NCBI GenBank assembly: GCA_964588165.1
Contig: CAZPMS010000003.1
Span: 10,031 to 74,030 of the forward strand
Source of the DNA: an uncultured Gammaproteobacteria bacterium
GTDB lineage: Bacteria > Patescibacteriota > Patescibacteriia > UBA1558 > UBA10009
Length of the DNA stretch: 64,000 nucleotides
Direction: 5' to 3'
The position numbers were made by a program, and so were the translations under genes. The notes under the pieces were generated by a model. That model had not been told where the DNA came from and searched no databases. It was given only the letters and a program-made list of their open reading frames with translations. Of the stretch, positions 921-29,166 are shown one piece after another (position 1 is the first letter of the stretch; every line of letters begins with the position of its first letter).

Positions 921-964
921 TTGATATATACTGCTGAAACGAAATATTTTAAGAACATTATTAT

Positions 965-1522
965 ATGGAAAATACTAGACTTGAAAATGAGATTATAGAA
1001 ATAATATCAAAATCACCAGTTAAAACTGATTTACCTCATGCAAAATCAACTAGAAAATGGATTCTGAAATTAAAACCCGACGCAGATTATGCTCTTCAAA
1101 TTTCTGCTTTGGCACATGATATAGAAAGAGGTTTAGAACCTGATTATCATAATAAAACCAAAGAAAAATTCGATAACTATAAAGAACATAAACGTATACA
1201 CTCTGAAAAAAGTGCAAAAGTTATAGTTGAACTACTAGAAAAGTATAATTTTGATAAAGAATTTATTTCTAAAGTTAAACATCTGGTTTTAAAACATGAA
1301 TTTGGTGGTGATTTTGAATCTAATCTTTTAATGGATGCAGATAGTATTTCTTTTTTTGAAGAAAACTTAGTACAATACCATGAGAAATATGGAGAAGAAA
1401 AGACGAGAAAAAAGATTAAATTTATGTATAATAGGATGTCTGATAAAGCAAAAAGTTTAGTCAAAAATATTCAATATGATAATTCTAAATTAAATCTCAT
1501 TCTCAAGGAAGAAACTTCTTAA
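965..1522 (+). CDS. Hypothetical protein, possibly an HD-domain phosphohydrolase-like fold
   Basis: 185-aa ORF with an H...HD-like motif (ISALAHDIERG). Lys/Glu-rich. No stronger match recognised. Confidence 0.35.
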   Translation: MENTRLENEIIEIISKSPVKTDLPHAKSTRKWILKLKPDADYALQISALAHDIERGLEPDYHNKTKEKFDNYKEHKRIHSEKSAKVIVELLEKYNFDKEFISKVKHLVLKHEFGGDFESNLLMDADSISFFEENLVQYHEKYGEEKTRKKIKFMYNRMSDKAKSLVKNIQYDNSKLNLILKEETS

Positions 1523-1576
1523 TTTCGTAAGAGATAAATTGAAAAATATTTTTAAACAGAGTACAACACCCCATAA

Positions 1577-2899
1577 ATGAAACTATCTGACTTAAATAAT
1601 AAAAAAATAGCTTTCTTGGGGCTAGGGATTGAAAATGTATCCCTAGTTAAATTTTTATTATCAAAAAAGATAAAGGCTGATTTTACTATTTGTGATCAAC
1701 GTTCAAAAACACAGCTTCAATTAAGATATACCGGTTTTTCAAAAAATAAAAAAATAAAATGGCAGCTGGGTAAAAACTATGATTCTAACTTAGAAAGTTT
1801 TGATATTATCATAAGGTCGCCCGGTTATCCTTTATTCACAAAAAATATTTTAAAGGCAAAAAAAGCTGGAACGAAAATTACCAGCCCCATTAAGTTATTT
1901 TTTTCAATATCTCCAACCAAAAACATTATTGGCGTAACCGGCACTAAGGGGAAGGGGACAACCGCTTCCTTAATCCATTTTATTTTAAAATCAGCAGGTA
2001 AAGATTCTTACATTGGCGGCAATATAGGCATTCCGGTTTTTGACTTTTTTAAAAAGCTTAAAAAAAACAGCTGGGTGGTTTTAGAACTCTCCAGTTTTCA
2101 CTTAGAGGATTTAGATGTTAGCCCAAAAATTTCTGTAATCACAAACTTTTACAAAGAGCATTTAGCTCCAGCCGACACCTACAATCCTAATTTCCACAAA
2201 TCTTTAGCAGGTTATTGGAAATCAAAACTCAATATTGCCAAGCTTTTAGATAAAAAAAATATTACCATAGTCAATAAATCATTAAAGAAAAAAATTCAAG
2301 GCAAAAAATTAAATTCCAAAATAATTTATTTCTCAAAATCTAATTTACCATCTAAGCTAGTAGGGGAGCATAATAAAGAAAATATTGATGCAGCAATTAA
2401 AGTTGCAAAACTTATTGGTATTAAAGAAAAAAATATTGCCGATTCTGTTACAAAATTTAAAGGCCTGGAGCACAGGCTCGAATTTGTTAAAAAAACCAAA
2501 CAGGTTAAATTTTTTAATGATAGTTTTGCCACTACCGAAGAAAGTGCCATTACGGCAATTGAATCATTTAATCAGCCAATAATTTTATTAGCCGGTGGCG
2601 CTGATAAAGGAGCTGACTTTAAAAAATTAGTTAAAAAAATTAAGAACAAAGTAAAATATGTAGTTTTGTTTGATGGTGATGCCACGCCTAAGCTTAAAAA
2701 GGCTTTATTATCCATTAATTATTCAAAAACCAGCCTTAAAACCGTACACAACATGAAGCAGGCTGTAAAAACAAGTTTCTTAGCTTCTAAACCAAATGAT
2801 ATCATTCTGCTATCACCGGCCTGTGCCAGTTTTGGCATGTTTAAAAATTATAAAGAGCGCGGAAAACTATTTAAAAAAGAGGTAAAACTCCTAAAATAG
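1577..2899 (+). CDS. murD: UDP-N-acetylmuramoylalanine--D-glutamate ligase
   Basis: Mur-ligase P-loop GVTGTKGKGTT. Lies between mraY and ftsW. 440 aa. Confidence 0.85.
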   Translation: MKLSDLNNKKIAFLGLGIENVSLVKFLLSKKIKADFTICDQRSKTQLQLRYTGFSKNKKIKWQLGKNYDSNLESFDIIIRSPGYPLFTKNILKAKKAGTKITSPIKLFFSISPTKNIIGVTGTKGKGTTASLIHFILKSAGKDSYIGGNIGIPVFDFFKKLKKNSWVVLELSSFHLEDLDVSPKISVITNFYKEHLAPADTYNPNFHKSLAGYWKSKLNIAKLLDKKNITIVNKSLKKKIQGKKLNSKIIYFSKSNLPSKLVGEHNKENIDAAIKVAKLIGIKEKNIADSVTKFKGLEHRLEFVKKTKQVKFFNDSFATTEESAITAIESFNQPIILLAGGADKGADFKKLVKKIKNKVKYVVLFDGDATPKLKKALLSINYSKTSLKTVHNMKQAVKTSFLASKPNDIILLSPACASFGMFKNYKERGKLFKKEVKLLK

Positions 2900-2900
2900 T

Positions 2901-4067
2901 ATGAGAAAAAAAAGCTTGTCAGAAAAAATAAAAGATCTAATTGCTTATCCCTTGGGACATAAGTTTTATAATCATGGTCCCGATATTATTTTATTGGTAA
3001 CTTTGGGGCTGATAATTCTTTTTGGCCTAATGATGCTTTCTTCGGCCAGCTCTGTCCAAGCTTTCCAAAAATTCGGCGATAGTTATTATTTTTTCAAAAA
3101 TCAACTTTTAAAAGGTCTAATTCCGGGCCTGATTGCTTTTTATATTGCCTCCCGTATAGACTATAGAACTTGGAAAAAATATGCCTTTGTTATGCTGATA
3201 GTTTCTGTAGTTTTATTGATTTTGGTTTTTATACCAGGGTTTGGCGTAAGTTATGGCAAAGCCCAAAGCTGGCTTAAGATAGGGCCTATTGGTTTCCAAC
3301 CCACAGAAATTGTTAAGTTAACTTTTTTAGTTTATCTGGCTACTTGGCTAGAAAAAAGAGGGGAAAGGGGATTAAAAGACCCACAATACGGCTTATTGCC
3401 ATTTTTATTTGCTATGGGCGTAATTAGTTTTTTAATATTGGCCCAACCGGATATGGGCACTTTAATGATTATTATCGCCATTAGCTTTATAATTTATTTT
3501 ATTGCCGGCGCGCCTCCTAAATATATTCTTGGCATTACTGCCGGCGCTTTGGTTATTTTATTTATAGCTATTCAGGTGGCGCCTTACCGCCTGGCCAGAT
3601 TTACCACCTTTTTTAATGCAGATGCAGACCCACAAGGAGTTGGTTACCACATTAGCCAATCAAAGCTGGCTATCGGTTCTGGCGGCCTAATCGGCCTGGG
3701 CATTGGCAAATCACGCCAAAAATTCAATTACTTGCCAGAAGTTTATGGTGATTCTATTTTTGCCATTATTGCCGAAGAAATGGGTTTTGTTTTTTCCATA
3801 ATTTTAGTTTTATTATTCTTAACTTTTGCCATAAGGGGACTTAAAATAGGCCGGGCTTCTCCCGATATGTTCGCGAAACTACTGGCCATTGGCATAACCA
3901 GTTGGATAACTTTCCAAGCTTTCATTAATATTGGCGCCATGGTAGGCTTACTACCGTTAACAGGAATTCCTTTGCCATTTATAAGTTATGGCGGAACTTC
4001 GCTTACAATTTCTTTATTTGCGGTTGGTATTTTAATAAATATTTCCAAACAAACTAAAACTGTTTAA
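2901..4067 (+). CDS. ftsW: Peptidoglycan glycosyltransferase FtsW (SEDS family)
   Basis: About 10-TM SEDS protein with a conserved C-terminal block (PLPFISYGGTSL). dcw-cluster context. Confidence 0.85.
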   Translation: MRKKSLSEKIKDLIAYPLGHKFYNHGPDIILLVTLGLIILFGLMMLSSASSVQAFQKFGDSYYFFKNQLLKGLIPGLIAFYIASRIDYRTWKKYAFVMLIVSVVLLILVFIPGFGVSYGKAQSWLKIGPIGFQPTEIVKLTFLVYLATWLEKRGERGLKDPQYGLLPFLFAMGVISFLILAQPDMGTLMIIIAISFIIYFIAGAPPKYILGITAGALVILFIAIQVAPYRLARFTTFFNADADPQGVGYHISQSKLAIGSGGLIGLGIGKSRQKFNYLPEVYGDSIFAIIAEEMGFVFSIILVLLFLTFAIRGLKIGRASPDMFAKLLAIGITSWITFQAFINIGAMVGLLPLTGIPLPFISYGGTSLTISLFAVGILINISKQTKTV

Positions 4068-10514: not shown

Positions 10515-13280
10515 ATGGGTTTTTTAGACAAATTATTTGGAGACGGTAATGAAAAATACCTAAAAACCCTCCAACCTACAATAGATAAAATTAATTCACT
10601 CGAAAAGGATTTCGAGAGTTTTTCTAATGATGAATTAAAGTCAAAAACTAATGACTTAAAATTAATGGTTAAGGATGGGAAAAAATTAGATGATATTTTA
10701 CCGGAAGCTTTTGCTTTAACCAAAGAAGCTGCCAAGCGGACTTTAAACATGAAGCACTATGATGTCCAACTTTTAGGAGGCATTGTGTTGCACCAAGGCC
10801 AGATTGCCGAAATGAAAACCGGTGAAGGTAAAACTATAACTGCCACTCTGCCGATATTCTTAAATGCTTTAGCCGGCAAAGGCGCCCATTTAATTACGGT
10901 AAATGATTATTTAGCCAGAAGAGACTCCGTTTGGATGGGGCAAATTTATAATATGCTGGGATTAACCATAGGTTGTATCCAGCATGACAGTGCTTTTATT
11001 TATGATGTTAATTATAAAGCTACAGAAGAAGTTGAAGAAGAAAGAGATAGGGGAATAGTGGTTAATGAAAACTATTTAAGGCCGGTGAGCAGGAAAGAAG
11101 CCTACGAGGCAGATATTACTTATGGCACCAATAATGAATTTGGCTTTGATTATTTGCGCGATAATATGGTCCAATCTTTAGAACAAAAAGTCCAACGGGA
11201 TTTGAATTATTGTATTGTAGATGAAGTGGACTCAATTTTAATTGATGAAGCCAGAACTCCGCTTATTATTTCTGCTCCGGATATGGAATCAACCGATAAA
11301 TACTTCCAATTTGCCAAACTGGTAAAAACTTTAAAGGAAAATGAAGATTACAATATTGATGAGAAAATGAAAGCGGCTACATTAACTGATAAAGGTATTG
11401 AAAATATTGAAAAAGCCTTAGGCGTAGATAATATCTACCAATCCAAAGGCATTCAAACGGTTCATCATTTAGAATCAGCCCTAAGGGCCGAAACTTTATT
11501 CAAAAAAGATAAGGATTACGTGGTAAAAGAAGGTGAAGTTATTATTGTTGATGAATTTACCGGCCGCATGATGTACGGCCGAAGATATTCCGAGGGCCTC
11601 CACCAAGCAATTGAGGCCAAAGAAGGTGTTAAGGTCCAACGTGAATCCAGGACTATGGCCACTATTACTTTCCAAAATTATTTTAGGCTTTATGAAAAAT
11701 TGGCCGGCATGACAGGTACGGCCGCCACCGAATCGGAAGAATTTTCTAAAATTTATAACCTGGAAGTAACAGTAGTACCTACTAATAAGCCAAATATCAG
11801 GAAAGATTTGAATGATTTAATTTACAAAAATGAAATAGCCAAATATAAGGCTGTTATTGAAGAAATTAAAAAAAGAAAGGCAGCTGGCCAGCCGGTTTTG
11901 GTTGGTACTATTTCCATTGAAAAAAATGAACTCCTGGCACAGCTTTTAGAGCAAGGCGGTGTTGAATATAATGCTTTAAATGCAAAAAACCACGCTAAAG
12001 AAGCGGAAATTATCGCCCAGGCCGGTAAAAAAGGTTCTGTTACCCTGGCCACTAACATGGCCGGCAGGGGAGTTGATATTATATTAGGCGGCAACCCAAC
12101 TGACGATAAAGAAGCAGAAGATATTAAAGCTTTGGGCGGTTTGCACGTGATTGGTACAGAAAGGCATGAATCCAGAAGAATTGATAACCAGTTAAGAGGT
12201 AGGTCCGGCAGGCAAGGGGATCCGGGATCAACCCAGTTTTTTGTCTGCATGGATGATGATTTAATGAGAATTTTCGGTTCCGATAGGATGAAAAACATTA
12301 TGACCACTCTAAAAGTTCCGGAAGATATGCCCATTGAAAATAAATTAATTACTAAATCTTTAGAATCAGCCCAAAAAAAAGTGGAAGGCAATAATTTTGA
12401 TATTAGGAAACATCTGGTTGAATATGATGATGTTATCAGCAAGCAACGGGAGGTAATTTATAAAAAAAGAAATCAAGTCTTAAAGCTTTCAGCCGGAGAA
12501 CAAACTGATGAATATAAATCTACCAAGGAAATGGTTTTGGAAATGCTAGCCGAAGAAATTACAAATCTGGTAAATTTCCATGCTGTTTCTGAAAATAATT
12601 CCGGCATTAACTATAAAGAGATTACAGAAACTATTGGCGCTATGTTCCCGCTGGATGATGAGATAAAAGAAAAAATTAACCAAGAAAAAACTCAGGAAAG
12701 TTTAACTGACTATTTAGTTAACTTAACTAAAGATAAATACCAACAGGTAGAAACAGATGTGGCTGGCATGCAGGAACTCCAAGGTGAAGCTGATCCTTTA
12801 AGAAACGTGGAAAAATCTTTAATCCTAAATACCATTGATACTTTTTGGGTGGAACATTTAGAAAATATTGACCATTTAAGAACCGGTATTGGCTTAAGAG
12901 GTTATGGCCAGCGTGATCCTTTAATTGAATTTAAAAAAGAATCATACCAACTGTTCCAATCATTGCTTTCGGCCGTCCAAAACCAGGTTATTTCTACTAT
13001 TTTTAAAATTGGCAAAGCAGCCCAAGTTACTCTTTCACCAATTGCTACTGCCAATATGAAATTCAGCGGTGCCGCTAAAACTGCTATTGATAATAGAAGC
13101 AGCATCCAGAGAATGGCCCAAAATACCAACCAGCCTCAAAAACCAGCTCCTGCTAAAAAACTTGAATCAAAACCTAAAGATGAATCTGGCAAAAAAGTTG
13201 GCCGGAATGATCCATGCCCCTGTGGAGCGGTTAAATCGAACGGCACTCCAAAAAAGTATAAGCATTGCCATGGAAAGTAG
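10515..13280 (+). CDS. secA: Preprotein translocase ATPase SecA
   Basis: 921 aa with DEAD-like motor motifs (MKTGEGKT, DEVDSILIDEARTPLIIS) and a C-terminal zinc finger CPCG...KYKHCHGK. The last 18 codons appear to be element-derived (see findings). Confidence 0.95.
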   Translation: MGFLDKLFGDGNEKYLKTLQPTIDKINSLEKDFESFSNDELKSKTNDLKLMVKDGKKLDDILPEAFALTKEAAKRTLNMKHYDVQLLGGIVLHQGQIAEMKTGEGKTITATLPIFLNALAGKGAHLITVNDYLARRDSVWMGQIYNMLGLTIGCIQHDSAFIYDVNYKATEEVEEERDRGIVVNENYLRPVSRKEAYEADITYGTNNEFGFDYLRDNMVQSLEQKVQRDLNYCIVDEVDSILIDEARTPLIISAPDMESTDKYFQFAKLVKTLKENEDYNIDEKMKAATLTDKGIENIEKALGVDNIYQSKGIQTVHHLESALRAETLFKKDKDYVVKEGEVIIVDEFTGRMMYGRRYSEGLHQAIEAKEGVKVQRESRTMATITFQNYFRLYEKLAGMTGTAATESEEFSKIYNLEVTVVPTNKPNIRKDLNDLIYKNEIAKYKAVIEEIKKRKAAGQPVLVGTISIEKNELLAQLLEQGGVEYNALNAKNHAKEAEIIAQAGKKGSVTLATNMAGRGVDIILGGNPTDDKEAEDIKALGGLHVIGTERHESRRIDNQLRGRSGRQGDPGSTQFFVCMDDDLMRIFGSDRMKNIMTTLKVPEDMPIENKLITKSLESAQKKVEGNNFDIRKHLVEYDDVISKQREVIYKKRNQVLKLSAGEQTDEYKSTKEMVLEMLAEEITNLVNFHAVSENNSGINYKEITETIGAMFPLDDEIKEKINQEKTQESLTDYLVNLTKDKYQQVETDVAGMQELQGEADPLRNVEKSLILNTIDTFWVEHLENIDHLRTGIGLRGYGQRDPLIEFKKESYQLFQSLLSAVQNQVISTIFKIGKAAQVTLSPIATANMKFSGAAKTAIDNRSSIQRMAQNTNQPQKPAPAKKLESKPKDESGKKVGRNDPCPCGAVKSNGTPKKYKHCHGK

Positions 13281-13442
13281 TCTCTACATTATAATTACTT
13301 AGTATTAGCTAAGTTTAAATTAAGTTCATATATAACACGGTGTATACGAAAAAACAGCTCACTTCTTGAGCTATTTTCTGCAAATTTGACTTATTTTTCT
13401 ATTATCAGTATTATATAAATATACTAATATATTTATATTACT

Positions 13443-13661
13443 ATGCGTAAAATAGATTTAAAAAATGTAATCTGGAAAGAAGGCAAATATTACGTGGCAC
13501 AATGTCTTAATGTTGATGTGTCTAGTTTTGGTAAAACAAAAAAAGAAGCTCTAGCTAATTTAGATGAGGCATTAGAGTTATATTTTGAAGATGTACAAAT
13601 ATCCAAGGTTACCAAAGTAGAAAGACCAGAGGTGGTAAGGCTATCCCTACGCTATGCCTAA
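13443..13661 (+). CDS. hicB: HicB-family antitoxin (UPF0150-like)
   Basis: 72 aa with the pattern KEGKYYVAQC...GKTKKEALANLDEALELYFE, typical of HicB N-domains. Overlaps the downstream hicA by 8 nt. Confidence 0.7.
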   Translation: MRKIDLKNVIWKEGKYYVAQCLNVDVSSFGKTKKEALANLDEALELYFEDVQISKVTKVERPEVVRLSLRYA

Positions 13662-13872
13662 ACTTTATTCATCTAGTAAAATTATCAAAGTCCTATTATC
13701 TAAGGGCTTTATTTTTATATCCCAAAAAGGCTCTCATGCCAAATATCGCAAATTCAATAGACTAGTTTTAACGGTTATTGTGCCTATTGGTAAAAAAGAA
13801 ATTCCAATAGGAACTTTTAAATCTATTTTACGCCAAGCAAATTTAATAGAAGAAGATTTCAAGAAAAAATAA
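13654..13872 (+). CDS. hicA: HicA-family mRNA interferase toxin
   Basis: 72 aa with KIIKVLLSKGF...QKGSHAKY...IPIGTFKSILRQANL, the HicA/YcfA consensus. Confidence 0.75.
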   Translation: MPKLYSSSKIIKVLLSKGFIFISQKGSHAKYRKFNRLVLTVIVPIGKKEIPIGTFKSILRQANLIEEDFKKK

Positions 13873-13926
13873 GTCAAAATTCGCATCCGCACACAAGTTA
13901 TATGAAATAATTAAATTTTTAGAACA

Positions 13927-14190
13927 AAAAAACACCTAGGCCAATAATGACAGCCTAGGTGCTACGAATAAGCTTACCTTGCAGCTCTGAGCTGGGTGCG
14001 ATACAGTCTCCAGCTAGTATTGTTACTTCTCCCAGTTGGCCTGCTTCTTCTAAAGAAAAAAGGAAGAAAGCTTAAGGTAGTTATTTGATACCAGCCTGGG
14101 CACATCATGTTCGCGTAAGACAGCAGAGGTCAGAAGGTGCTAGCTAGCATTTTGCTTATCCGGTTTTGATCCCTTTGTATAAAAAAACTT
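13927..14190 (-). ncRNA. Putative sRNA of about 264 nt, GC-rich relative to the host, convergent with hicBA
   Basis: On the - strand, TTGACA (complement of 14222-14227), a 17-bp spacer, then TATATT (complement of 14199-14204). It ends at an intrinsic terminator: hairpin cacctaggc/gcctaggtg at 13934-13962 followed by a U-run (plus-strand A-run 13927-13933). There is no convincing ORF (best is 47 aa without an RBS). Confidence 0.4.
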
Positions 14191-14374
14191 AAATACTAAT
14201 ATATAATATATTTAATATTTTGTCAATAGTAAGTAATAGCTCAATCAAAACAAAATTAAAAAAATTAAATAAGAAAAACCGCCGAGTTGTGTAACTAGGC
14301 GGTTTTGTGATACCTCAACACTCATCATTTTTTTCTTCTTAGAGAATCTATTCTAACTGCACTACCGAATCTCT

Positions 14375-14452
14375 CGGAATGATCCATGCCCATGCGGAGC
14401 GATTAAAGATGATGGAACTCCAAAAAAATACAAACATTGTCACGGAAAATAA
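14375..14452 (+). pseudogene. Displaced 3'-terminal fragment of secA (zinc-finger tail [25 protein letters not shown]), an attR-like remnant
   Basis: 17 nt identical to secA 13203-13219 (cggaatgatccatgccc), then synonymous-diverged codons for the same C-terminal peptide, ending in TAA. There is an in-frame stop immediately upstream, so it is not a complete gene. Confidence 0.65.
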
Positions 14453-14631
14453 TTCTTTTTTAAAAAAATCCTGTATCCACCATAATAAAGTGATGAAAAC
14501 AGGATTTAATGATTGTAATTATAGCCAAGTGCCTGAAGGACTAACTGGTCCTTAGGTTGGCTTGTAGCCAGCGATCCAAAAGCCGGAATCCCAATAGTAA
14601 CCGAAGATAATTCTCGCTCTGGGCTTACCGC

Positions 14632-15003
14632 TTAAATTATCGAATCGCGCGTTACACCAGTACCCATCTCTATTCTTCCAGTGGGTCCCGTTGGGGAATT
14701 CCTCGGCGAAAATCGGTTTTGTTCATTAAGCGTAGCTAGTGTAAAAGGATCAACAACACGCAGGCCACGTTCTTCACAATAAATGTCAACTTCTTCGTCA
14801 GTGGTCATACCAGATTTTAGTTCGAACAAGAAAACATCGATTTCCCCGCCACTACCCCTCGGCATTTGTTCAATCAACCTATGGCCAATAATCTCTCGGC
14901 CAGTACCCTCTAGCACATTCAATGAAGTACGGCTACAATCCACACTGACACGACAGACTATCATGTCGCCATGGTCGCTCTGGATAAATTTAAAAGACAT
15001 GGT
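14632..15003 (-). CDS. Hypothetical protein (island cassette gene 1); probable start MSFKF at 15003
   Basis: RBS agaaaggataatacc before the ATG at 15003. The first 17 residues of the tracked ORF are read-through of the shared repeat. GC-rich. A terminator hairpin and U-run lie downstream at 14465-14510, so the gene may be frameshifted or longer. Confidence 0.45.
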   Translation of the reverse strand, partial: TMSFKFIQSDHGDMIVCRVSVDCSRTSLNVLEGTGREIIGHRLIEQMPRGSGGEIDVFLFELKSGMTTDEEVDIYCEERGLRVVDPFTLATLNEQNRFSPRNSPTGPTGRIEMGTGVTRDSII

Positions 15004-15021
15004 ATTATCCTTTCTTGTTGT

Positions 15022-15140
15022 TGAATGAATTGTACGAATAATAAAGCACTGCATCAGATTCCAGCTATATTGTCAATAATCTATATAAAATAAAAAACCA
15101 CCTTAAGCTATGTCGAAAGGCGGTTTTGTAATAACCAAAA
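15022..15140. repeat. Direct repeat copy 1: promoter, 5' UTR and terminator module of the island cassettes
   Basis: About 119 bp, near-identical to 16161-16280. Contains an upstream terminator (aaaaaaccacc...ggcggtttt) and a leftward TTGACA promoter. Confidence 0.8.
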
Positions 15141-15148
15141 TTAGCTAT

Positions 15149-15400
15149 TTAAGTAAACAATAAGATGCCGGCGATTAGTATGCCAATGATTGGGATGCCA
15201 AATAGAATTATGCGTGTACGAAGTTTTTGCCTGGCTATCAATACGCTTCTACCTGCCTTACCTTGCCTCTGGCACTTATAGCATACACCGTCTTTATGAT
15301 GGATTGTATACCATCTTTCGCCACAATGGATGCAATCTTCCATCTCATCCCTTGATCCTTCAGCCAGTTCGGCCATTAAGTCACCTGTATGGTCGCCCAT
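15149..15400 (-). CDS. Small zinc-ribbon protein with a C-terminal TM helix (island cassette gene)
   Basis: CIHCG...CYKCQ double CxxC plus a hydrophobic tail. - strand promoter TTGACA-17-TATTAT (complement of about 15445-15473). Confidence 0.5.
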   Translation of the reverse strand: MGDHTGDLMAELAEGSRDEMEDCIHCGERWYTIHHKDGVCYKCQRQGKAGRSVLIARQKLRTRIILFGIPIIGILIAGILLFT

Positions 15401-15622
15401 AATCTACCTATGTTTGTTGGATTTAAAAAAACGTTAACATCGAATAATAACATAAACAAATAAACTTGTCAATAATCTATTTAAAATTAATTCATTGGAA
15501 AGCTTAAATAATTACGATAACGATTTAAGAATATATAAAATCCCTTAAAAAATTTATCATAAATAAAAGCGTAAATCATGTAGACTTACGCTTGTAATTC
15601 AGAAACTTTCTAAATTTTCTAC

Positions 15623-16126
15623 TCATTGATCCTGATAAAAGCCGATCCAAAATACACCGCCTAGTACAAAAAATAATACGTACAAAACTAGGAAAAGCCA
15701 TTGGTACGGAAAAATAACAATTTTGGTTGGCTTAATAACATGAGAGCTTTCATCAACTAAGACTTCTCGAATCTTCATTAAAGCAATGCCTTGTTCTGAT
15801 TGCGTTACAGTTAATGAATCAATTTTAAAACGTCTTATGATTGTTGATGTGGTTTGTTTGGCTCCCTGAATTTGTGAATACCAAATAGCAACATCATTAC
15901 TAGGTCGAAAGAAGGCAAAAGCAGAGTGACCACTAGTCAAGCCTCTCTCTTCGATTTTCAGAAGAGCATTGTTAAGAAACTCATCAGCGCGCTCTATGCT
16001 CGGAGCCTCAGCTGCTAACTTAAGCCAATCGCCGATATCACGATCAAAGGTGTAGTCAAGAATGCAGTGGTAAACACTAAGGCCCAGAAAGAAAAGAGTA
16101 AAAGCTATGGCAATAAACTGTTTCAT
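15623..16126 (-). CDS. Hypothetical membrane protein (island cassette gene 2); start MKQF at 16126
   Basis: N-terminal and C-terminal TM segments. The upstream residues of the tracked ORF are encoded by the repeat (GTG start). Uses the shared promoter/UTR module. Confidence 0.5.
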   Translation of the reverse strand: MKQFIAIAFTLFFLGLSVYHCILDYTFDRDIGDWLKLAAEAPSIERADEFLNNALLKIEERGLTSGHSAFAFFRPSNDVAIWYSQIQGAKQTTSTIIRRFKIDSLTVTQSEQGIALMKIREVLVDESSHVIKPTKIVIFPYQWLFLVLYVLFFVLGGVFWIGFYQDQ

Positions 16127-16160
16127 CTCTAAATCCTTTCGCCCTATTAAGAGCTTTTCT

Positions 16161-16280
16161 TTGAATGAATTGTACGAATAATAAAGCACTGTATCAGATT
16201 CCAGCTATATTGTCAATAATCTATATAAAATAAAAAACCACCTTAAGCTATGTCGAAAGGCGGTTTTGTAATACCTCAAT
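16161..16280. repeat. Direct repeat copy 2 of the promoter/UTR/terminator module
   Basis: Near-identical to 15022-15140 (1-2 mismatches). A third, partial and diverged copy lies at 16583-16650. Confidence 0.8.
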
Positions 16281-16304
16281 TCATTGCTTTCTCTTATTGG
16301 TGAT

Positions 16305-16577
16305 TTAATTAGAATCTATTCTAACTGCAACACCGAATTTCTCGGAGTGATGCATAATTAGATCACCAACTGCTTTATATGGAACCTTGCCAGCTGCCCA
16401 AATTCCAGGCTTTCCCTCAATGCATGCATGATAGTCAGCTGTTCTTTTTGTGACAACGATAACTATGGTCTTTTCTTTGGGCCGCCCGCTAAGGTATATG
16501 AAGAAAAAAAGTACCCAAGCCAACAAAGCGCCAACCCCGCCAACAATAATGTAGGTTACCAGGTCTTCCATGACCAT
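16305..16577 (-). CDS. Small membrane protein (island cassette gene 3); start MVMEDL at 16577 with a ggag RBS
   Basis: One TM helix. The C-terminal codons are supplied by the element-end/att-like repeat (16311-16355). Confidence 0.4.
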   Translation of the reverse strand: MVMEDLVTYIIVGGVGALLAWVLFFFIYLSGRPKEKTIVIVVTKRTADYHACIEGKPGIWAAGKVPYKAVGDLIMHHSEKFGVAVRIDSN

Positions 16578-16726
16578 CTCCGAAGTTGAATGAATTGTGC
16601 GAATAATAAAGCACAATATCATATTCTAGTCATATTGTCAATAGTAGTACAAAAAAACATTAAACAAAACACCCATACAAAAGCTTGCATTTTTTTAGTA
16701 ATTACTCTAAAATAGTACGCAAGATT

Positions 16727-18427
16727 ATGGCAAATAAAGTAAAAGTAGTTACCAGAAGAAAAATCTGGCTAAGTTTCTTAGCCGTTTTAGTTTTGGCCTT
16801 ATTTTGCGGCTTTGTTGTTTATCCTAACTTACCCCAATCATTCCCGGGTAAGTCTTTTTTTAGCGGATTTTATCCACATTTGGGCTTAGATTTACAAGGC
16901 GGAACCCATTTGGTTTACCAAGCTGATGTTTCTACCATAGAATCCGGTGATCAAGATTCAGCCTTAGAAGGCGTAAGGGATGTTATAGAAAGGCGGGTAA
17001 ATGCTTTTGGAGTTTCTGAACCTTTGGTCCAGACCAAATCCGGCAACCGCTTAATAGTAGAACTGGCCGGTGTCCATGATGTAAATGAAGCTATCAAGCA
17101 AATAGGTGAAACACCCTTGTTGGAATTCAAAGAATTGGATGAAACCATGCCGGAACCTTTAACTGATGAGGAAAAAGCCGAGGCTATTGAATATAATAAA
17201 GGTGTTCTGGATAAAGCTAATGAATTAATATCCAGAATTAATTTAGGTGAAGATTTTGCCACCTTAGCCACTGAATTTTCCGAAGATCCTGGAAACAAAG
17301 ATAACGGAGGTGATTTAGGCTTTGCCAAAAGGACAACTTATGTAGAAGAGTTTGATAAAGCAATTTTTGAAGATTTACGCATAGGCCAAACCACCAGCCA
17401 GCCGGTTAAAACCCAGTTTGGCTATCATATAATTAAAAAGGAAGAAGAAAGGGGAGAGGCTGAAAATTTAGAAGTTAGGGCCAGGCATATTTTACTCACC
17501 ACTAAAAATGAGTTTACCAAAGAAGCTCCTCCGGCTGATTGGAAAAATACCCAGCTTTCCGGAAAAAACCTGCAAAAAGCCCAAGTGGAATTTGATCCAA
17601 ATACCGGCCAGCCAAATGTTGCTTTAGATTTTGATAGTGAGGGACAAAACCTGTTTGCCGAGTTAACCAAAAGAAACCTGCAAAAGCCAATCGCCATATT
17701 TTTGGACGGCAGTGCCATTTCTGTGCCAACAGTACAAGAAGAAATTTCACAAGGCAGGGCTATAATCTCCGGCAATTTTAATATAAATGAAGCCAAGCTT
17801 TTAGTGCAAAGGCTTAACGCCGGTGCCTTGCCGGTTCCTATAGATCTTATCAGCCAGCAAACTGTCGGGCCAACTTTAGGCAAAATTTCTTTACAAAAAA
17901 GTTTAATGGCCGGTTTAATCGGCCTGATTGCCGTTATCTTTTTTATGCTTTTCTATTACCGCTTATTGGGTTTGTTTGCTGTTTTAGCTTTACTAATCTA
18001 CGGCTTAGTTACTTTGGCCATATTTGAGGCGTGGCCCGTAACTTTAACCCTTTCGGGAATTGCCGGTTTTATTCTTTCCATAGGTATGGCTGTTGATGCC
18101 AATGTTTTAATATTTGAAAGAACCAAGGAAGAATTAAAAAACGGCAAACCGCTGGGAACTTCTATAGAAGAAGGGTTTGCCAGGGCTTGGCCTTCTATAA
18201 GGGATTCTAATATTTCCAGCATAATAACCTGTTTAATTTTATTCTGGTTTGGTTCCAGCATTATAAAAGGATTTGCCATAACGCTGGGCGTTGGTATTAT
18301 TATTTCCATGTTTTCCGCCATTACCGTAACCAGGACATTCTTGAGGTTAACCTCTGGCAATTTCTTCTCCAAACACCTTGCTTTATTTGGCATTAAAACA
18401 AAACCAACAGATAAATTTCCTACCTAA
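16727..18427 (+). CDS. secD: Protein-export membrane protein SecD with an embedded parvulin/PpiC-type PPIase-like domain in the periplasmic head
   Basis: SecD TM1, P1 head and C-terminal 6-TM bundle. Residues roughly 150-260 carry GGDLGF..FDKAIF...TQFGYHIIK and ARHILL, the parvulin rotamase signature. The Met at 16727 is preferred over 16685. Confidence 0.85.
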   Translation: MANKVKVVTRRKIWLSFLAVLVLALFCGFVVYPNLPQSFPGKSFFSGFYPHLGLDLQGGTHLVYQADVSTIESGDQDSALEGVRDVIERRVNAFGVSEPLVQTKSGNRLIVELAGVHDVNEAIKQIGETPLLEFKELDETMPEPLTDEEKAEAIEYNKGVLDKANELISRINLGEDFATLATEFSEDPGNKDNGGDLGFAKRTTYVEEFDKAIFEDLRIGQTTSQPVKTQFGYHIIKKEEERGEAENLEVRARHILLTTKNEFTKEAPPADWKNTQLSGKNLQKAQVEFDPNTGQPNVALDFDSEGQNLFAELTKRNLQKPIAIFLDGSAISVPTVQEEISQGRAIISGNFNINEAKLLVQRLNAGALPVPIDLISQQTVGPTLGKISLQKSLMAGLIGLIAVIFFMLFYYRLLGLFAVLALLIYGLVTLAIFEAWPVTLTLSGIAGFILSIGMAVDANVLIFERTKEELKNGKPLGTSIEEGFARAWPSIRDSNISSIITCLILFWFGSSIIKGFAITLGVGIIISMFSAITVTRTFLRLTSGNFFSKHLALFGIKTKPTDKFPT

Positions 18428-21412: not shown

Positions 21413-22951
21413 ATGGATATTACTATCGATTTAAGCAGATTTTTTGAACTGATTAATGAAGAGCCAGCTAGCCTTTTATGGTTTTTATTTACCCATGGCG
21501 GTTGGCTTGTTTTAATTATCGTAATTTTATCAATCTTCCTTTATCTTCGTTTATATAACCAGCAAAAAAAATATCTAGAGTCTGTAGAACAAACAATCTT
21601 GGCCATAGATATCCCTAAAGATAATGAACAAAGTTTAGTGGCAGCAGAACAAATATTCGCCAGCCTAGCCGGTATAAAACGCAGCGGCACTTTGGTTGAT
21701 AAATACTGGCACGGCAAAACACAGCTTTCTTTTAGTTTGGAAATTATTTCCCTGGAAGGCTATATTCAATTCTTAATCAGAACCCCTGTCCGATTTAAAG
21801 ATTTGGTAGAAGCTGCTATTTATGCCCAATATCCGGAAGCCGAAATTACCGAAGTAGAGGACTATGTTAAATCTATCCCGGATGATGTACATGAATTGGA
21901 TTCAGATTATAAACTTTGGGGTACAGAATTTAGATTGGATAAATTCAGCGCCTATCCTATAAAAACCTACCGAAGTTTTGAACATCCTTTAACTCAAACT
22001 TTTATAGACCCAATGGCTTCTATGCTGGAAGTAATGAGCAAGCTTGGCCCCGGTGAACAACTGGGCCTCCAGTTTGTAATTGCACCGGTAAATAATAAAT
22101 GGAAAGAAAGAGGCTACCAGCTTATAAAAAAATTAATTGGTGAAAAAGTTGATGCTAACAAAAATTTAGGAGATAAATTAGTAGAGTCTTCTGTAGAAGG
22201 TTTGGGAAAATTCAGCGAATCAATTTATAAAATTTGGGGCGATATTGAAGAAAAAAGAGATGATGATTCTGCGCATCCTAATTTATACCAATATTTAACT
22301 CAAAATCAAAAATTTGTGGTAGAAGCCATAGAAAACAAGCTCTCCAAAATTTCTTTTGCTACAACCTTTAGGGTTTATTATTTAGCCAACACTCAGCGCT
22401 ACCAAAGAGGCAAAGGTGTTAACCCAATAATTGGAGCCATTAACCAATTTAATTCATCCGATTTAAACTCATTCAAAAAAAATAAGAGGTTCACAACCGA
22501 TGCCCACTATTTTTTTGTGGATAAAAGAATTTCTAGAGTTCAAAAAAAACTGTTAAAATTATATAAGAAAAGATCCAGGAAAGGAACTTATGAATTTTAT
22601 TTAGGCACCGAAGAGCTGGCTACCTTATATCATTTCCCTATTATAACTGTTAAAGCTCCTTTACTAAAAAGAACGGAATCTAAAAAAGCAGAAGCTCCAA
22701 CTGCATTGCCTTTGGAGCAGCAAAGAGCCAGCGAGCTTTTTAACCCGCCCACTGAAGATATTTTACCCGCAGATGATGAAGAAAAGTTAGGGGAGCCGGA
22801 CCATAAAATTACCGAATCTTTGCCAGGCTATGATTTTGATAATGACTATTTTGAAGAAAAATTTAAAAAAGACGATTCTACAATAAAAACTCCCAGCCAG
22901 GAATTATCAAAAAAGGAGGACCCTCCCTCAAATTTACCAATTAGCCACTAA
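21413..22951 (+). CDS. Hypothetical membrane-anchored protein (N-terminal TM, large soluble domain, acidic C-terminal tail)
   Basis: 512 aa with a single N-terminal TM (WLVLIIVILSIFLYL). Tightly coupled (8-nt gap) to the downstream ATPase. Confidence 0.5.
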   Translation: MDITIDLSRFFELINEEPASLLWFLFTHGGWLVLIIVILSIFLYLRLYNQQKKYLESVEQTILAIDIPKDNEQSLVAAEQIFASLAGIKRSGTLVDKYWHGKTQLSFSLEIISLEGYIQFLIRTPVRFKDLVEAAIYAQYPEAEITEVEDYVKSIPDDVHELDSDYKLWGTEFRLDKFSAYPIKTYRSFEHPLTQTFIDPMASMLEVMSKLGPGEQLGLQFVIAPVNNKWKERGYQLIKKLIGEKVDANKNLGDKLVESSVEGLGKFSESIYKIWGDIEEKRDDDSAHPNLYQYLTQNQKFVVEAIENKLSKISFATTFRVYYLANTQRYQRGKGVNPIIGAINQFNSSDLNSFKKNKRFTTDAHYFFVDKRISRVQKKLLKLYKKRSRKGTYEFYLGTEELATLYHFPIITVKAPLLKRTESKKAEAPTALPLEQQRASELFNPPTEDILPADDEEKLGEPDHKITESLPGYDFDNDYFEEKFKKDDSTIKTPSQELSKKEDPPSNLPISH

Positions 22952-22959
22952 TTAAAATA

Positions 22960-24555
22960 ATGAAAAATGAAATAACAACTTTTGCCAAAACTAACTTCCG
23001 CAATCAGGAAACGAAATTTGGGATAAAAACCGACGACAGGCGTCGGCATATGTATTTGTTAGGCAAAACAGGCATGGGTAAATCAGTTACCTTGGAGAAT
23101 ATGATTATCCAAGATATTAAAAACGGCAAAGGCGTAGCTGTAGTAGATCCCCATGGAGAGCTGGCAGAAAAGGTTATAAAATTTATTCCCAAAGATAGGA
23201 TAAATGATGTTGTTTATATTAACCCGGCGGACTTGGATTTTCCGGTTGCTTTTAATGTTTTAGAACAAGTGGCGCCGGAGCACCGGCATTTGGTTGCCTC
23301 TGGCTTGCTCGGGGTATTTAAGAAAATTTGGGCAGATTCTTGGGGACCTAGATTAGAATATGTTTTAAATAATGCCATTATGGCCCTTTTGGAATACCCA
23401 GGAAGTACGCTTTTAGGAATTATGCGGATGTTAACTGATAAAGTTTTTAGGAAAAAAGTGGTTAACAAAATCAGCGATCCTGTGGTTAAAGCCTTTTGGG
23501 TGGATGAATATTCAAAATATCCAGATAGGTTCCAAGCCGAAGCAATAGCCCCTATCCAAAATAAAGTTGGCAGATTTTTATCCTCTTCTATGATGAGAAA
23601 TATCGTTGGCCAAGTAAAATCTTCTATTGATTTAAGAAAGGTAATGGACGAAAAGAAAATCTTGCTTTTAAACCTTTCTAAAGGCAGAATTGGTGAAGAT
23701 AACTCCGCTCTTTTAGGAGCGATGATTATTACCAAAATTCAGCTGGCAGCCATGAGTAGGGTAGAGATGTCTGAAGATAAACGGGAAGACTTCTACCTTT
23801 ACGTTGATGAATTCCAAAATTTTTCAACCGAAAGTTTCGCTAATATTTTATCTGAAGCAAGAAAATATAGGTTGAATATTATAATGGCGCACCAATATAT
23901 TGAACAGCTAAAAGATGAAACCAGAGCAGCTGTATTTGGCAATGTTGGCACTATTATCTCATTTAGGATTGGGGCAGAAGATGCAGAATTTTTAGCTAAA
24001 GAATTTAACCCCAGATTTGATGAAATTGATCTGGTTAACTTAAGCAAATACCATATTTATTTAAAGCTGATGATAGATGGAGTTTCATCTGAACCTTTTT
24101 CTGCAACTACTTTGCCGCCTGCTACAGAACCGGAAGAATGGGAAGAAAATTTAAAAAAAATAGTTGATGTTTCCAGGGAGAGATATTCTACCAAAAGGCC
24201 TGTTATAGAAGAAAAAATTTCCCGTTGGGCAAACTTGGAAACTGATTCTACCGATGATTCTCCCGATAAAGGCACCAGTAAAAATTACCGTGGCAGCAAT
24301 CCAAGATCAAATAATGATCAAGATCAGCCCAGGGTAGTGGCTACTTGCGATAATTGTGGCAATAAAACCATTTTAAATTTTGAACCTGATTTAAATAAGC
24401 CCATCTACTGCAAGGACTGCTTAAAGAAAAAATATAAAACTCCGGCCAAAAAAGAAGGCCTTGGTGAAAAAACCCAAAAACAAGAATCTATTTCACTTAA
24501 AAATGCTATGGACCAAAAGGTCCAGGATTTTAAAGGCGGCAGGAATAAAAATTAG
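22960..24555 (+). CDS. VirD4/TraG/TrwB-like type IV coupling-protein-family ATPase, soluble, with a C-terminal zinc ribbon
   Basis: Walker A LGKTGMGKS. VDPHGE and DVVYINPAD...FNVLEQ blocks. A DEFQNF...EARKYRLNIIMAHQYIEQL C-terminal AAD-like block. C-terminal CDNCGN...CKDC. No TM segment. Confidence 0.55.
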   Translation: MKNEITTFAKTNFRNQETKFGIKTDDRRRHMYLLGKTGMGKSVTLENMIIQDIKNGKGVAVVDPHGELAEKVIKFIPKDRINDVVYINPADLDFPVAFNVLEQVAPEHRHLVASGLLGVFKKIWADSWGPRLEYVLNNAIMALLEYPGSTLLGIMRMLTDKVFRKKVVNKISDPVVKAFWVDEYSKYPDRFQAEAIAPIQNKVGRFLSSSMMRNIVGQVKSSIDLRKVMDEKKILLLNLSKGRIGEDNSALLGAMIITKIQLAAMSRVEMSEDKREDFYLYVDEFQNFSTESFANILSEARKYRLNIIMAHQYIEQLKDETRAAVFGNVGTIISFRIGAEDAEFLAKEFNPRFDEIDLVNLSKYHIYLKLMIDGVSSEPFSATTLPPATEPEEWEENLKKIVDVSRERYSTKRPVIEEKISRWANLETDSTDDSPDKGTSKNYRGSNPRSNNDQDQPRVVATCDNCGNKTILNFEPDLNKPIYCKDCLKKKYKTPAKKEGLGEKTQKQESISLKNAMDQKVQDFKGGRNKN

Positions 24556-24590: not shown

Positions 24591-25535
24591 ATGGAAAACC
24601 CGAAAACAACCGCAAAAAAAATTAAAGAGCTTAATATACAAGGAGCCCGAGCTATTGCCGTGGCTTCTTTATTATCGCTAAAAACATCAAGACGCGAAGG
24701 CGCTGAGTCGCAAAAGCGCAAAAGCGCAAAAGCTCAAAAACAATTTATTACCTCAATCAAAAAGGATGTTAATTTGCTAATTGATGCACGGCCCACCGAA
24801 CCTTTAGTCCAAAATACTCTTAATTTTGTTTTAACCCAAGTTAAACTTTATAAAAAATCAGATGTTAAAGGTTTAATTAATGTTGTTAAAGACACGGTTG
24901 ATTATCTGCTGGATGTTCTAAAAAATGCCCGCCTGGAAATTATCAAAACAGGGGAGAAGCTGATTAAATCTAAGCAAAACGTTTTTACCCATTGCCATTC
25001 ATCTACAGTTGAAGCAATTTTGATTAATGCCTGGAAAAATAATAAAAAATTTAAAGTTTTTAATACCGAAACCAGGCCACTGTTCCAAGGCAGATTAACG
25101 GCTAAGGCCTTAAGAAAACAAAATATTCCGGTTACTATGGTAGCAGATAGTGCTGCTTCGTTTTTAATTTCAGAAACTTCCGGCAAACAATTAATGATGG
25201 ATAAAATTTTACTGGGAGCAGACGCTGTTTTACCAGATGGATCTGTGATAAATAAAATTGGCAGTTTTGGCATTGCCCAAAGCGCCCATTTAAATAAAGT
25301 TCCGCTTTATGTGGTAACCAACTTGCTTAAATATGATACTGACGGCATTATTCCGATTGAGATACGAGCCGAAGAAGAAGTCTGGAAAAACAAACCTAAA
25401 GGTTTAAAAATTATTAACTTTGCTTTTGATACTATTCCAGCAAAATATATAACAGGTATTATTTGTGAATTCGGCGTTATAAAACCTTCTAAAATAAAAA
25501 CATTAATAAAAACTAACTATCCTTGGTTAAAGTAG
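24591..25535 (+). CDS. Ribose-1,5-bisphosphate isomerase (e2b2 / eIF-2B alpha-beta-delta-like family)
   Basis: eIF-2B-like fold signature GADAVLPDGSVINKIGSFGIA. Directly upstream of the RuBisCO gene. Confidence 0.7.
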   Translation: MENPKTTAKKIKELNIQGARAIAVASLLSLKTSRREGAESQKRKSAKAQKQFITSIKKDVNLLIDARPTEPLVQNTLNFVLTQVKLYKKSDVKGLINVVKDTVDYLLDVLKNARLEIIKTGEKLIKSKQNVFTHCHSSTVEAILINAWKNNKKFKVFNTETRPLFQGRLTAKALRKQNIPVTMVADSAASFLISETSGKQLMMDKILLGADAVLPDGSVINKIGSFGIAQSAHLNKVPLYVVTNLLKYDTDGIIPIEIRAEEEVWKNKPKGLKIINFAFDTIPAKYITGIICEFGVIKPSKIKTLIKTNYPWLK

Positions 25536-25624
25536 CCACTACGAATTACTAATCAATACGAATATACCAATAATTTGTAATTCGTATATTTGTACAAATT
25601 CGTAATTAGTAGTAATTAAAACAT
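25536..25624. repeat. Palindromic TACGAAT/ATTCGTA intergenic element, copy A (between the R15P isomerase and rbcL)
   Basis: actacgaattactaat..tacgaatata...ttcgtatatt...attcgtaattagtagt, nested inverted repeats. Confidence 0.6.
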
Positions 25625-26887: not shown

Positions 26888-27021
26888 TTTTAAGCTGATT
26901 TTATTGATATAATCAATTAATTCGCATATATAGTGTTATGTGACATGGTGCTTTTATAGCATAATAAAAACCCGCCGTTCGTACTAAACTACTAAGCGGG
27001 TAATAATGAGAGATGCCTGGA

Positions 27022-27201
27022 TCATTTTTCCTCGTATTCAATACAAGCAACGACGGGCCCACCGCGACCAATCTGACCATCTTCAGCAAGAGTCACACGG
27101 GTGACAGTCACCTCAATACCCCTATCCTTACGATTCTGAATGAACCATTTTGTAACCAGCATCTCAATCGTGCTTGCCTGAACTGTTGTTGTGTTTTTCA
27201 C
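27022..27201 (-). CDS. Small hypothetical protein (about 60 aa, GTG start) on a GC-rich insert
   Basis: RBS aggagg plus a 7-nt gap before GTG. Perfect - strand promoter TTGACA (complement of 27267-27272), 17-bp spacer, TATTAT (complement of 27244-27249). Confidence 0.4.
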   Translation of the reverse strand: MKNTTTVQASTIEMLVTKWFIQNRKDRGIEVTVTRVTLAEDGQIGRGGPVVACIEYEEK

Positions 27202-27243
27202 AATCAATCCTCCTGTGTAGGTATTAATATTTTGTAACAAGGA

Positions 27244-27272
27244 ATAATAGCATACAAAAATTATTCTGTCAA
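27244..27272 (-). promoter_or_regulatory. Consensus sigma-70-type promoter for the 27022..27201 ORF
   Basis: TTGACA-17-TATTAT read on the - strand. Confidence 0.5.
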
Positions 27273-27448
27273 TAGTAAGTTAACTTAATTATTCTGTAGT
27301 TAATGCACCACATCACATAACATCCCATATGCGGTTCTGTGTCCTTTCCCTTTCAGCTATAATTAAAAAAATAACATGAAATCAATTTTAGAATCAAAAT
27401 CAGCGTTAATAATAAAATCTTATAAAAAATAAACTAACAAATATATTT

Positions 27449-29110: not shown

Positions 29111-29166
29111 CAAAAAGAAAACCGGGACAGTTTTGTAACCGTCCCGGAAAAAATCATGAATCATTA

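Follow-up and report, generated by a model that had tools for sequence, protein, structure and literature searches.

An insertion at the 3' end of secA and an adjoining array of small genes in a member of the Patescibacteria

Genomic islands, prophages, and integrative and conjugative elements (ICEs) that enter the 3' end of a gene and supply it with a replacement end are exemplified by islands that target tRNA and transfer-messenger RNA (tmRNA) genes; in the tRNA-targeting islands, different integrase subfamilies use different sublocations. Protein-coding genes are entered at their 3' ends by ICESt1/3 (fda), Tn5801 (guaA), and SCCmec (rlmH). We analyzed a 64,000-nt stretch of a contig from the Patescibacteria, or candidate phyla radiation (CPR), hereafter called the window, whose positions serve as coordinates throughout. 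In its 3.4-kb interval between secA and secD, a 1.17-kb insertion adjoins the 3' end of secA (Table 1). As in the islands that target gene 3' ends, the insert lies between direct repeats of the target end, of which the first is functional and complete and the second survives as a truncated remnant, an identical crossover core is followed by a diverged remainder, and the cargo includes a toxin-antitoxin pair. Unlike in those islands, no integrase or excisionase was found here, the insert is only 1.17 kb long, the putative right arm consists of the 3' coding sequence of a small neighboring gene, and the target is the coding sequence of the SEC-C zinc finger of secA, for which no precedent was found in the literature.

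Three other kinds of system resemble parts of this locus. Homology-facilitated illegitimate recombination and Campbell-type insertion-duplication occur in the natural transformation of Acinetobacter and Streptococcus pneumoniae. They resemble what we propose here in their use of one conserved anchor and a microhomology join with no need of a dedicated recombinase, and they would explain the variable boundaries of the duplicated secA end between loci; unlike those low-frequency laboratory observations, the present case is fixed in a natural population and recurs at one gene end phylum-wide. Arrays of integrons and superintegrons likewise hold small, mostly unknown genes with repeated sequences between them, carry toxin-antitoxin cargo, and gain or lose units between strains. 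Unlike in integrons, no intI, attI, or attC-type site was found here, the repeats are complete promoter, leader, and terminator modules, so that the cassettes are predicted to be self-expressed, and the one variation seen is of the RecA type, between 120-nt repeats. HicAB type II systems, finally, share with this locus a HicA toxin domain encoded after a small, overlapping upstream partner; here, unlike in those systems, the partner matches DUF7387 only, has no recognizable DNA-binding domain, and lies with hicA inside an unusual 17-plus-19-nt inverted repeat that reaches both coding regions.

The explanation that we favor, with about even confidence, is that the interval is a 3.4-kb accessory islet formed by two processes, namely, one insertion by host recombination, without an integrase in cis, and an older gene array. 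The most interesting outcome is an apparently recombinase-independent insertion that recurs at the SecA zinc-finger coding sequence across Patescibacteria.

A replaced and a displaced secA tail

Alignment bore out the sequence-only reading that the tail of secA (13203 to 13280) recurs at 14375 to 14452, with 17 identical nucleotides followed by synonymous divergence. The direct repeat covers 77 nt (13203 to 13279 and 14375 to 14451; copies A and B) and is 81% identical, its second copy lies 1172 nt downstream of the first, and the 17-mer at its left edge, CGGAATGATCCATGCCC, is present exactly twice in the 64 kb. Of the 16 nucleotide differences between the copies, 12 affect third codon positions; at the codon level, 10 changes are synonymous, the TAG/TAA stop among them, and the 3 that alter an amino acid all lie in a variable loop. 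Tail A closes the secA open reading frame (ORF) with the CxC...CH motif intact. Because third positions account for 12 of the 16 differences and each copy kept its stop codon, A and B must have evolved as functional coding ends in separate lineages. Judged by this coding pattern, their divergence reflects purifying selection in different lineages, with no duplication in situ, and one tail was apparently displaced recently enough to stay intact.

Copy B had also been described as preceded by a stop, and an in-frame stop codon was indeed found 7 codons upstream, with no ATG, GTG, or TTG between that stop and the tail. Tail A, then, completes secA, and copy B, with no start codon, is a displaced gene end. 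With an attachment (att)-type direct repeat, including the identical 17-nt core, at both ends of the insert, the repeat geometry and the coding comparison of the tails support the earlier claim that DNA was inserted at the 3' end of secA, supplying a replacement end and displacing the resident one. By hand calculation from rough codon frequencies in twelve tails of the long type (the form of SEC-C tail carried by the window), agreement between two independent tails at every one of the five synonymous sites in the 17-nt block would be expected in about 1% of cases, which points to this block as the probable place of the crossover. Tail B is 81 to 86% identical to the long tails of relatives and tail A is 74 to 76% identical, although 78 nt is too short to tell which copy is native. 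Directly beyond tail B lies a bidirectional hairpin, probably the former secA terminator, that is convergent with the small gene u4, a placement that fits B as the former functional end of secA facing the gene array.

Tandem duplication in situ of the secA 3' end and its downstream DNA, with later divergence and replacement of content, could leave a similar trace, as slipped or unequal recombination can give direct repeats of a gene end, and at two other secA loci perfect duplications of 42 nt (L105) and 16 nt (L025) surround tiny inserts. It is an improbable account of this locus, where the copies differ at 21% of positions, almost all of them synonymous, with the stops kept, which a nonfunctional duplicate would not do, and where the DNA following A is unrelated to that following B.

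The repeat might instead be functional, for example, as the template/variable pair of a diversity-generating retroelement or as a recoded alternative C terminus, a suggestion to which the intact frame of copy B and the good preservation of remnants at other loci would lend some weight. We consider this very unlikely. A retroelement was rejected because no reverse transcriptase domain occurs in the scanned ORFs of the window and because the mismatches between A and B, which are of all base types, mostly synonymous, and without adenine specificity, have the wrong pattern. Recoding, frameshifting, or bypass into the remnants was rejected because remnants at different loci stand in different frames and some of them are damaged, having lost a zinc ligand or the stop codon; copy B itself stands after a stop without a start codon.

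The supported insertion (13220 to 14374) consists of the replacement tail, a terminator, hicBA, a bounded noncoding RNA candidate, and a repeat designated D6. The toxin-antitoxin cargo that had been read from the sequence stands for hicA, which matches PF07927 at 59.6 bits (cutoff, 27). For its partner, a 72-aa product of the overlapping upstream ORF, the match is to DUF7387 only (30.2 bits against a cutoff of 27.9), and no HicB family of Pfam or NCBIfam matched. The inverted repeat that brackets the pair has a 17-nt block spanning the -35 element of the hicBA promoter and a perfect 19-nt block that covers hicB codons 2 to 7 and lies near the C terminus of hicA; it could represent mini-cassette ends resembling terminal inverted repeats or an mRNA fold-back. 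Exact look-ups of the HicA sequence returned no context other than this one.

The reported small RNA is a candidate only, predicted from a minus-strand promoter (TTGACA-17-TATATT, 14226 to 14198) and a strong intrinsic terminator (13963 to 13931). It folds with a z-score of -2.0 and has a GC content of 43%, and no Rfam family matched it, either at the gathering threshold over the window or at the E-value threshold over the interval. The description of the intervening DNA as richer in GC than the host applies to this candidate and to the small genes u4, u3, and u1 (43 to 45%). It fails for the insertion, which at 31.7% GC (hicBA itself, 30.7%) lies below the window average of 34.8%. Scans for tRNA, tmRNA, and Rfam families at the gathering threshold gave zero matches over the whole 64 kb; because these scans and the Rfam search of the interval were empty, the insertion target is not an RNA gene.

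The statement that the intervening DNA encodes no integrase or recombinase held for the interval and beyond. Neither the interval nor the remaining ORFs scanned across the window gave a match to an integrase, recombinase, or transposase domain; the scan took in essentially all ORFs of at least 180 aa beyond about 23 kb and a precomputed gene table for the first 23 kb or so, and two scanned ORFs had no Pfam match at all. Nor was a recombinase among the 25 families listed for 150 ORFs within 3.5 kb downstream of secA at the first 94 related loci, a list that includes all families matching at least 3 ORFs and two-member families in part, so that a recombinase in 1 or 2 ORFs could be missed.

Among relatives, the nearest with junction data (L165; SecA identity, 78%) has a tail of the short type, with secD about 95 nt after secA and no insertion, and the next (L163; 75%) has a different small insert after secA; the secA-secD spacer varies in size among relatives. 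The best SecA matches in a species-level genome collection were metagenome-assembled genomes of Patescibacteria at no more than 64% identity. Scans of genome and metagenome collections gave no relative above approximately 64% and hence no same-species empty site, and look-up by protein cluster returned no SecA variant that ends in tail B.

The flanking repeat and the minus-strand array

The sequence-only reading had the event happening twice, as two elements stacked in tandem, with a further core copy at the right and the same sequence of roughly 34 nt as an element end before both copies. A repeat is present: the 45 nt leading into copy B (14343 to 14387) recur at 16311 to 16355 with 89% identity, and their first 19 nt are identical and occur at those two places only. 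The third core copy did not hold up. The segment at 16343 to 16355, CGGAGTGATGCAT, matches the core at only 11 of 13 positions, it lies inside the minus-strand ORF u1, and no secA tail or SEC-C-like remnant is found to its right, where the coding sequence of u1 continues. A tandem array would have a third att site with the original gene end behind it; this was not seen, and the two-element reading is further weakened by the DNA between copy B and secD, which is an array of minus-strand genes with promoters of their own that varies at 120-nt modules, away from the secA core.

The 34-nt sequence also fared poorly as an element end. On the minus strand, D6 copy C supplies the final 15 codons of u1, ending in MHHSEKFGVAVRIDSN and the stop codon; 31 nt further on come a TTGAGGTATTACAAAACCGCC hairpin and, after it, the next promoter. 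In the same direction, D6 copy B leads after 24 nt to a TTGAGGTATCACAAAACCGCC hairpin and, beyond it, to the promoter that serves the RNA candidate, so both copies stand 24 to 31 nt from the same conserved TTGAGGTATYACAAAACCGCC terminator motif. Since copy C lies inside u1 and the terminator is shared, the flank of copy B can be read as the truncated end of a u1-like cassette. By this simpler reading of the sequence, D6 copy B would be the truncated 3' end of a u1-like minus-strand cassette and no proven att arm, and the repeated unit would be a cassette 3' end plus terminator, cut at B exactly where the secA tail starts. The homology of B with C overlaps the homology of A with B by exactly the 13-mer CGGAATGATCCAT (or CGGAGTGATGCAT in u1). 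D6 is absent from the rest of the window, from 182 fetched loci, and from viral contigs and was found in this organism only, and its copy B folds no better than shuffled sequence (z = -0.77).

From 14453 to 16684, the interval holds four small minus-strand genes, each with a near-identical module made up of a TTGACA promoter, a leader of 59 nt that all share, and a terminator. The conserved leader sequence GCTTTATTATTCGTACAATTCATTCAAC stands ahead of u4, u2, and u1 and may be regulatory. Two 120-nt modules (D1) are 97% identical. A homology search found no homologue of u1, and exact look-ups of u4 returned no context other than this one. At L163, a different minus-strand membrane gene lies next to secD and has a related leader (GTTGAATGAATG...TTGTCAA), from which we conclude that a promoter stood at this position before the two lineages diverged. 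A u2 homologue (50% identity) belongs to a further array of small genes without annotation, at locus L179 (positions 1 to 3600), in which two intergenic regions carry the repeated module CTCGACTCGAGAAYYAAWTCAATRRTTGTCCRGTCAAGAGAG; such arrays, self-expressed and with repeated modules upstream of their small genes, may occur more widely.

Identical sequence was found in separately made assemblies from ENA (SCRA20-1 and SUTE22-1), JGI (3300009374, 3300009375, and 3300009405), and Logan. A strain variant without u3 and u2, with its junction inside the D1 modules, appears in two independent assemblies; this loss is the only polymorphism seen in the population, and the secA core takes no part in it. 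An assembly artifact in which strain variants were joined chimerically at the conserved tail might be suspected because several contigs from other samples end at or near the repeated modules. Such an error is extremely unlikely, in that independent JGI and ENA assemblies from different samples agree exactly over positions 12501 to 17500, parts of this region are also covered by Logan contigs, and the D1-mediated deletion is the only variation.

Displaced tails at other secA loci and the route of insertion

The same-strand order of secA followed by secD is common in Patescibacteria, with a spacer of 59 nt to more than 9 kb, and displaced secA tail remnants were found at approximately 15 of about 150 Patescibacteria secA loci. 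Use of secA as a target had been called unusual, and our literature search for secA as an integration site returned no relevant report; within Patescibacteria, it is recurrent. The remnants always reach a stop codon, their starting codons vary (VGRN, RND, Cys2/Gly, and KKC), and the inserts before them range from 60 to 1500 nt, with contents that include an AbiEii toxin gene, ORFans, and hairpins. Perfect repeats enclose a 60-nt hairpin insert at L105 (42 nt), 71 nt at L025 (16 nt), and 1.49 kb with the AbiEii toxin gene at L096 (19 nt), where the two copies have different stop codons. The remnant VGRNESCPCNSGKKFNQCHGK, closed by a stop, lies at +542 at L009; the remnant at L072 begins with the RND codons, like that of the window, and lies at +763, beyond an intervening 162-aa ORF; and those at L137 and L083 are more degenerate. 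The frame of the remnant relative to secA varies (read by eye, +2 at L163 and L005 and +1 at L082), and some remnants are damaged, with a zinc ligand lost at L163 (His to Tyr) and the stop codon lost at L058 and L059. As a control, 3'-end duplicates no more than 3 kb downstream were present at 5 of 120 secA genes, compared with 6 of 771 other ORFs of at least 300 codons from the same loci, and only 2 of those 6 were anchored at the gene end; such duplicates are thus enriched at secA.

Two more loci are independent cases of hic genes at the end of secA: L140, with hicBA 47 nt after the secA stop codon (11076 to 11553), and L148, with a split hicA match on the opposite strand just after secA (3010 to 3185). 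Several candidate remnants were discarded. The second SEC-C motifs at L037 and L119 belong to genuine separate small SEC-C proteins, the self-matches at L073 and L097 were judged to be due to chance, and a hairpin-like match inside secA of L067 is in-frame coding sequence.

Seven loci (L005, L027, L047, L058, L059, L082, and L163) have the long-type tail of the window and, within 45 to 65 nt, an A-rich spacer, an AGCG.AG motif, a GC hairpin, and a short-tail remnant ((G)SGKKYKKC[HC]G and a stop codon). The hairpins fold better than shuffled sequences at most of the loci tested, and the arrangement was found at none of about 134 short-type loci. The SecA zinc-finger tail thus comes in two forms, and their distribution departs from the SecA tree: on a neighbor-joining tree, the long type, present at 32 of 120 tips, needs 25 parsimony changes, compared with 28.5 for shuffled labels. 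From this almost random spread, the long-type tail looks like a mobile alternative zinc-finger tail. Separately, the GC-rich hairpin motif CCGCCG[AT]AGCCTTGGCGAAGGCGG was seen in intergenic positions of different Patescibacteria genomes, both beside secA (the proximal hairpins of L027, L047, and L105) and elsewhere (L037:393 and L126:4681), and may be an element of the repetitive extragenic palindromic type.

For the window, we infer a mechanism without a cis-encoded integrase. Process 1 would be a single horizontal insertion of 1.17 kb (13220 to 14374), joined at the 17-nt core in the SEC-C coding sequence. The incoming DNA would have brought its own secA end (tail A), a terminator, hicBA in its inverted repeats, the noncoding RNA candidate, and the 3' stub of a u1-like cassette (D6), and the resident end (tail B) would have been pushed downstream to become an untranslated remnant. 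The donor would be a sister lineage with the order secA(tail A)-hicBA-noncoding RNA-u1'-secD, where two 13-mers in the same orientation, CGGAATGATCCAT in the secA tail and CGGAGTGATGCAT in u1' (11 of 13 positions), would allow illegitimate joining by microhomology. The product, a fragment or circle made up of core-tail A-cargo-D6, would then recombine with the recipient secA at the identical core through host recombination after DNA uptake, of either the Campbell type or the homology-facilitated illegitimate type; the 17-nt core is a possible anchor, and the 13-mer shared by the secA tail and u1 is a possible microhomology. The SEC-C coding sequence would make a good anchor, given its nucleotide conservation across divergent lineages and the harmlessness of an insertion that restores the tail. 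Process 2 would concern the u4-u1 array, which would be older, would have stood between the former secA end and secD, and would grow and shrink by homologous recombination between its modules. This model accounts for the core-like 13-mer inside a gene, for the absence of an integrase from what was found, and for the comparable divergence of the repeat pairs (about 80% and 89% identity).

A nonautonomous integrative element moved in trans by a tyrosine or serine integrase encoded elsewhere is possible, although we think it unlikely. Its attL would be 13203 to 13219, its attR would be 14375 to 14391, D6 would be a binding arm, and 16311 to 16355 would be a decayed earlier attR. It would fit the perfect 17-nt core at the left edge of a diverged repeat, the restored 3' end of secA, the three-way pattern secA-core-tail A, D6-core-tail B, and D6-core', the fact that remnants elsewhere always run through the stop codon, and the variable size of the secA-secD interval in relatives. 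Set against it are the failure to find an integrase in the window or a recombinase downstream of related secA genes (within the scopes given above), a left boundary of the remnant that differs between loci, and inserts that never exceeded 1500 nt. Also counting against it, D6 recurs once, inside an ORF with a promoter and the same downstream terminator and with no tail remnant after it, and nowhere else, and its copy B has no unusual fold. The variable starts of the remnants could reflect the work of several integrase subfamilies; the simpler option, as the inserts are tiny and integrase-less, is insertion anchored by homology at a sequence whose conservation allows recombination across lineages.

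Several observations count against the host-recombination model that we prefer. A perfect 17-nt core followed by divergence is exactly the trace that a trans-acting site-specific integrase would leave, and uptake of circular DNA lies outside the usual transformation route. No same-species empty site, circle junction, or donor arrangement was found, and the collections searched yielded no relative above 78% SecA identity, the large protein collection giving only those at 78% and 75%. The differences between D6 copies B and C carry no clear coding signature, and u1 is an ORFan, so that D6 as a gene end rests on the context of promoter, ribosome-binding site, and terminator only. Lastly, seven loci share one junction (Cys2/Gly) and a conserved AAGCGGAGTCC hairpin, which together look more like a specific element than like random microhomology.

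At the scale of the phylum, we tentatively raise a broader scenario, which we put below even confidence: the secA SEC-C coding sequence may be a landing pad across Patescibacteria for integrase-less mini-cassettes that restore the tail and leave the displaced one as a portable homology arm. The cassettes would be toxin-antitoxin modules, ORFans, GC-rich hairpin elements, and the mobile alternative long zinc-finger tail, and the allele would spread between divergent lineages by host or trans-acting recombination. CPR bacteria have tiny genomes and few recognizable mobile elements, they are without cultures, and their acquisition of accessory genes is poorly understood. If the scenario is true, stranded SEC-C tails would be a concrete, searchable signature of gene flow in these bacteria, a natural example of a conserved coding sequence acting as a cross-lineage recombination anchor, and possibly a neutral docking site for future genetic tools.

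Feature positions and surrounding genes

In the window, secA follows mur genes and a divergent prs-like gene, and the 3.4-kb interval after it leads to secD (with a PpiC insert) and then secF. Features are listed in Table 1.

Table 1. Positions of features in and around the secA-secD interval of the window
Feature	Position	Strand	Evidence or remark
secA	10515..13280	+	ORF, 921 aa; Pfam SecA domains; long-type SEC-C zinc-finger tail
17-nt core, copy A (CGGAATGATCCATGCCC; codons R-N-D-P-C-P)	13203..13219	+	Exact 17-mer, elsewhere only at 14375
Replacement secA tail A, current functional 3' end	13220..13280	+	Contiguous with secA ORF; 79-81% identical to B
Terminator-like hairpin after tail A	13356..13372	+	Promoter/terminator scan
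Left arm of inverted repeat bracketing hicBA (17-nt and 19-nt blocks)	13382..13463	.	Repeat search
Promoter-like site for hicBA (TTGACT-17-TATTAT)	13386..13414	+	Promoter/terminator scan
hicB-like antitoxin candidate, 72 aa	13443..13661	+	Pfam DUF7387, E = 6e-7; 8-nt overlap with hicA
hicA toxin, 72 aa	13654..13872	+	Pfam PF07927, E = 3e-16; phrog_353 "toxin," E = 7e-17
Right arm of inverted repeat bracketing hicBA	13815..13881	.	19-nt block GCGTAAAATAGATTTAAAA perfectly complementary
Candidate noncoding RNA, ~265 nt	13925..14190	-	Own promoter and intrinsic terminator; no ORF of at least 60 aa
Terminator hairpin, conserved TTGAGGTATYACAAAACCGCC module	14275..14306	-	Repeat comparison and sequence reading
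Repeat D6, copy B	14343..14374	.	Same placement relative to terminator module as copy C
Displaced secA tail B (core plus 61 nt), gene-end remnant	14375..14452	+	Codons intact; SEC-C Pfam match
Hairpin between tail B and convergent u4, bidirectional	14466..14507	.	Inverted repeat
u4, 122 aa	14632..15000	-	Uncharacterized domain family, ~95 distant homologues; no Pfam match
Module D1, copy 1 (terminator, TTGACA promoter, u4 leader)	15014..15133	-	D1 97%; D2
Segment with u3 and u2, absent in strain-variant contigs	15134..16160	.	L164/L167 (ENA), L171 (JGI)
u3, 83 aa	15149..15400	-	Four Cys, CxxC...CxxC; hydrophobic C terminus; promoter 15472 to 15444
u2, 167 aa, small membrane protein family	15623..16126	-	Homologues with 44-58% identity
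Module D1, copy 2 (u1 terminator, u2 promoter and leader)	16154..16273	-	Repeat search, promoter/terminator scan
u1, 90 aa, ORFan	16305..16577	-	Hydrophobic N-terminal stretch; promoter 16641 to 16613
Repeat D6, copy C, with 11/13 core-like 13-mer	16311..16355	.	Inside last 15 codons of u1
Third copy of promoter/leader module (D2), driving u1, divergent from secD	16585..16643	-	Repeat search
secD with inserted PpiC rotamase domain	16727..18427	+	Right border of variable interval

In two ENA assemblies that contain the secA region of the window (L164 and L169), secA is called as two ORFs, of 672 or 666 aa and 249 aa, and the split in L164 coincides with a single gap in its alignment to the window; the likelier explanation is an assembly error, the other being a genuine frameshift in an essential gene. 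A few kilobases downstream of secF, positions 21413 to 24555 encode a DUF8128 protein followed by a coupling ATPase of the HerA/TrwB/TraG type with a zinc finger, a possible component of DNA transfer or uptake. The cluster at 24591 to 31034, which encodes an IF-2B-family protein, a homologue of the RuBisCO large subunit, and a nucleoside-phosphorylase-like protein, resembles the AMP/nucleoside salvage pathway described for CPR bacteria and archaea.

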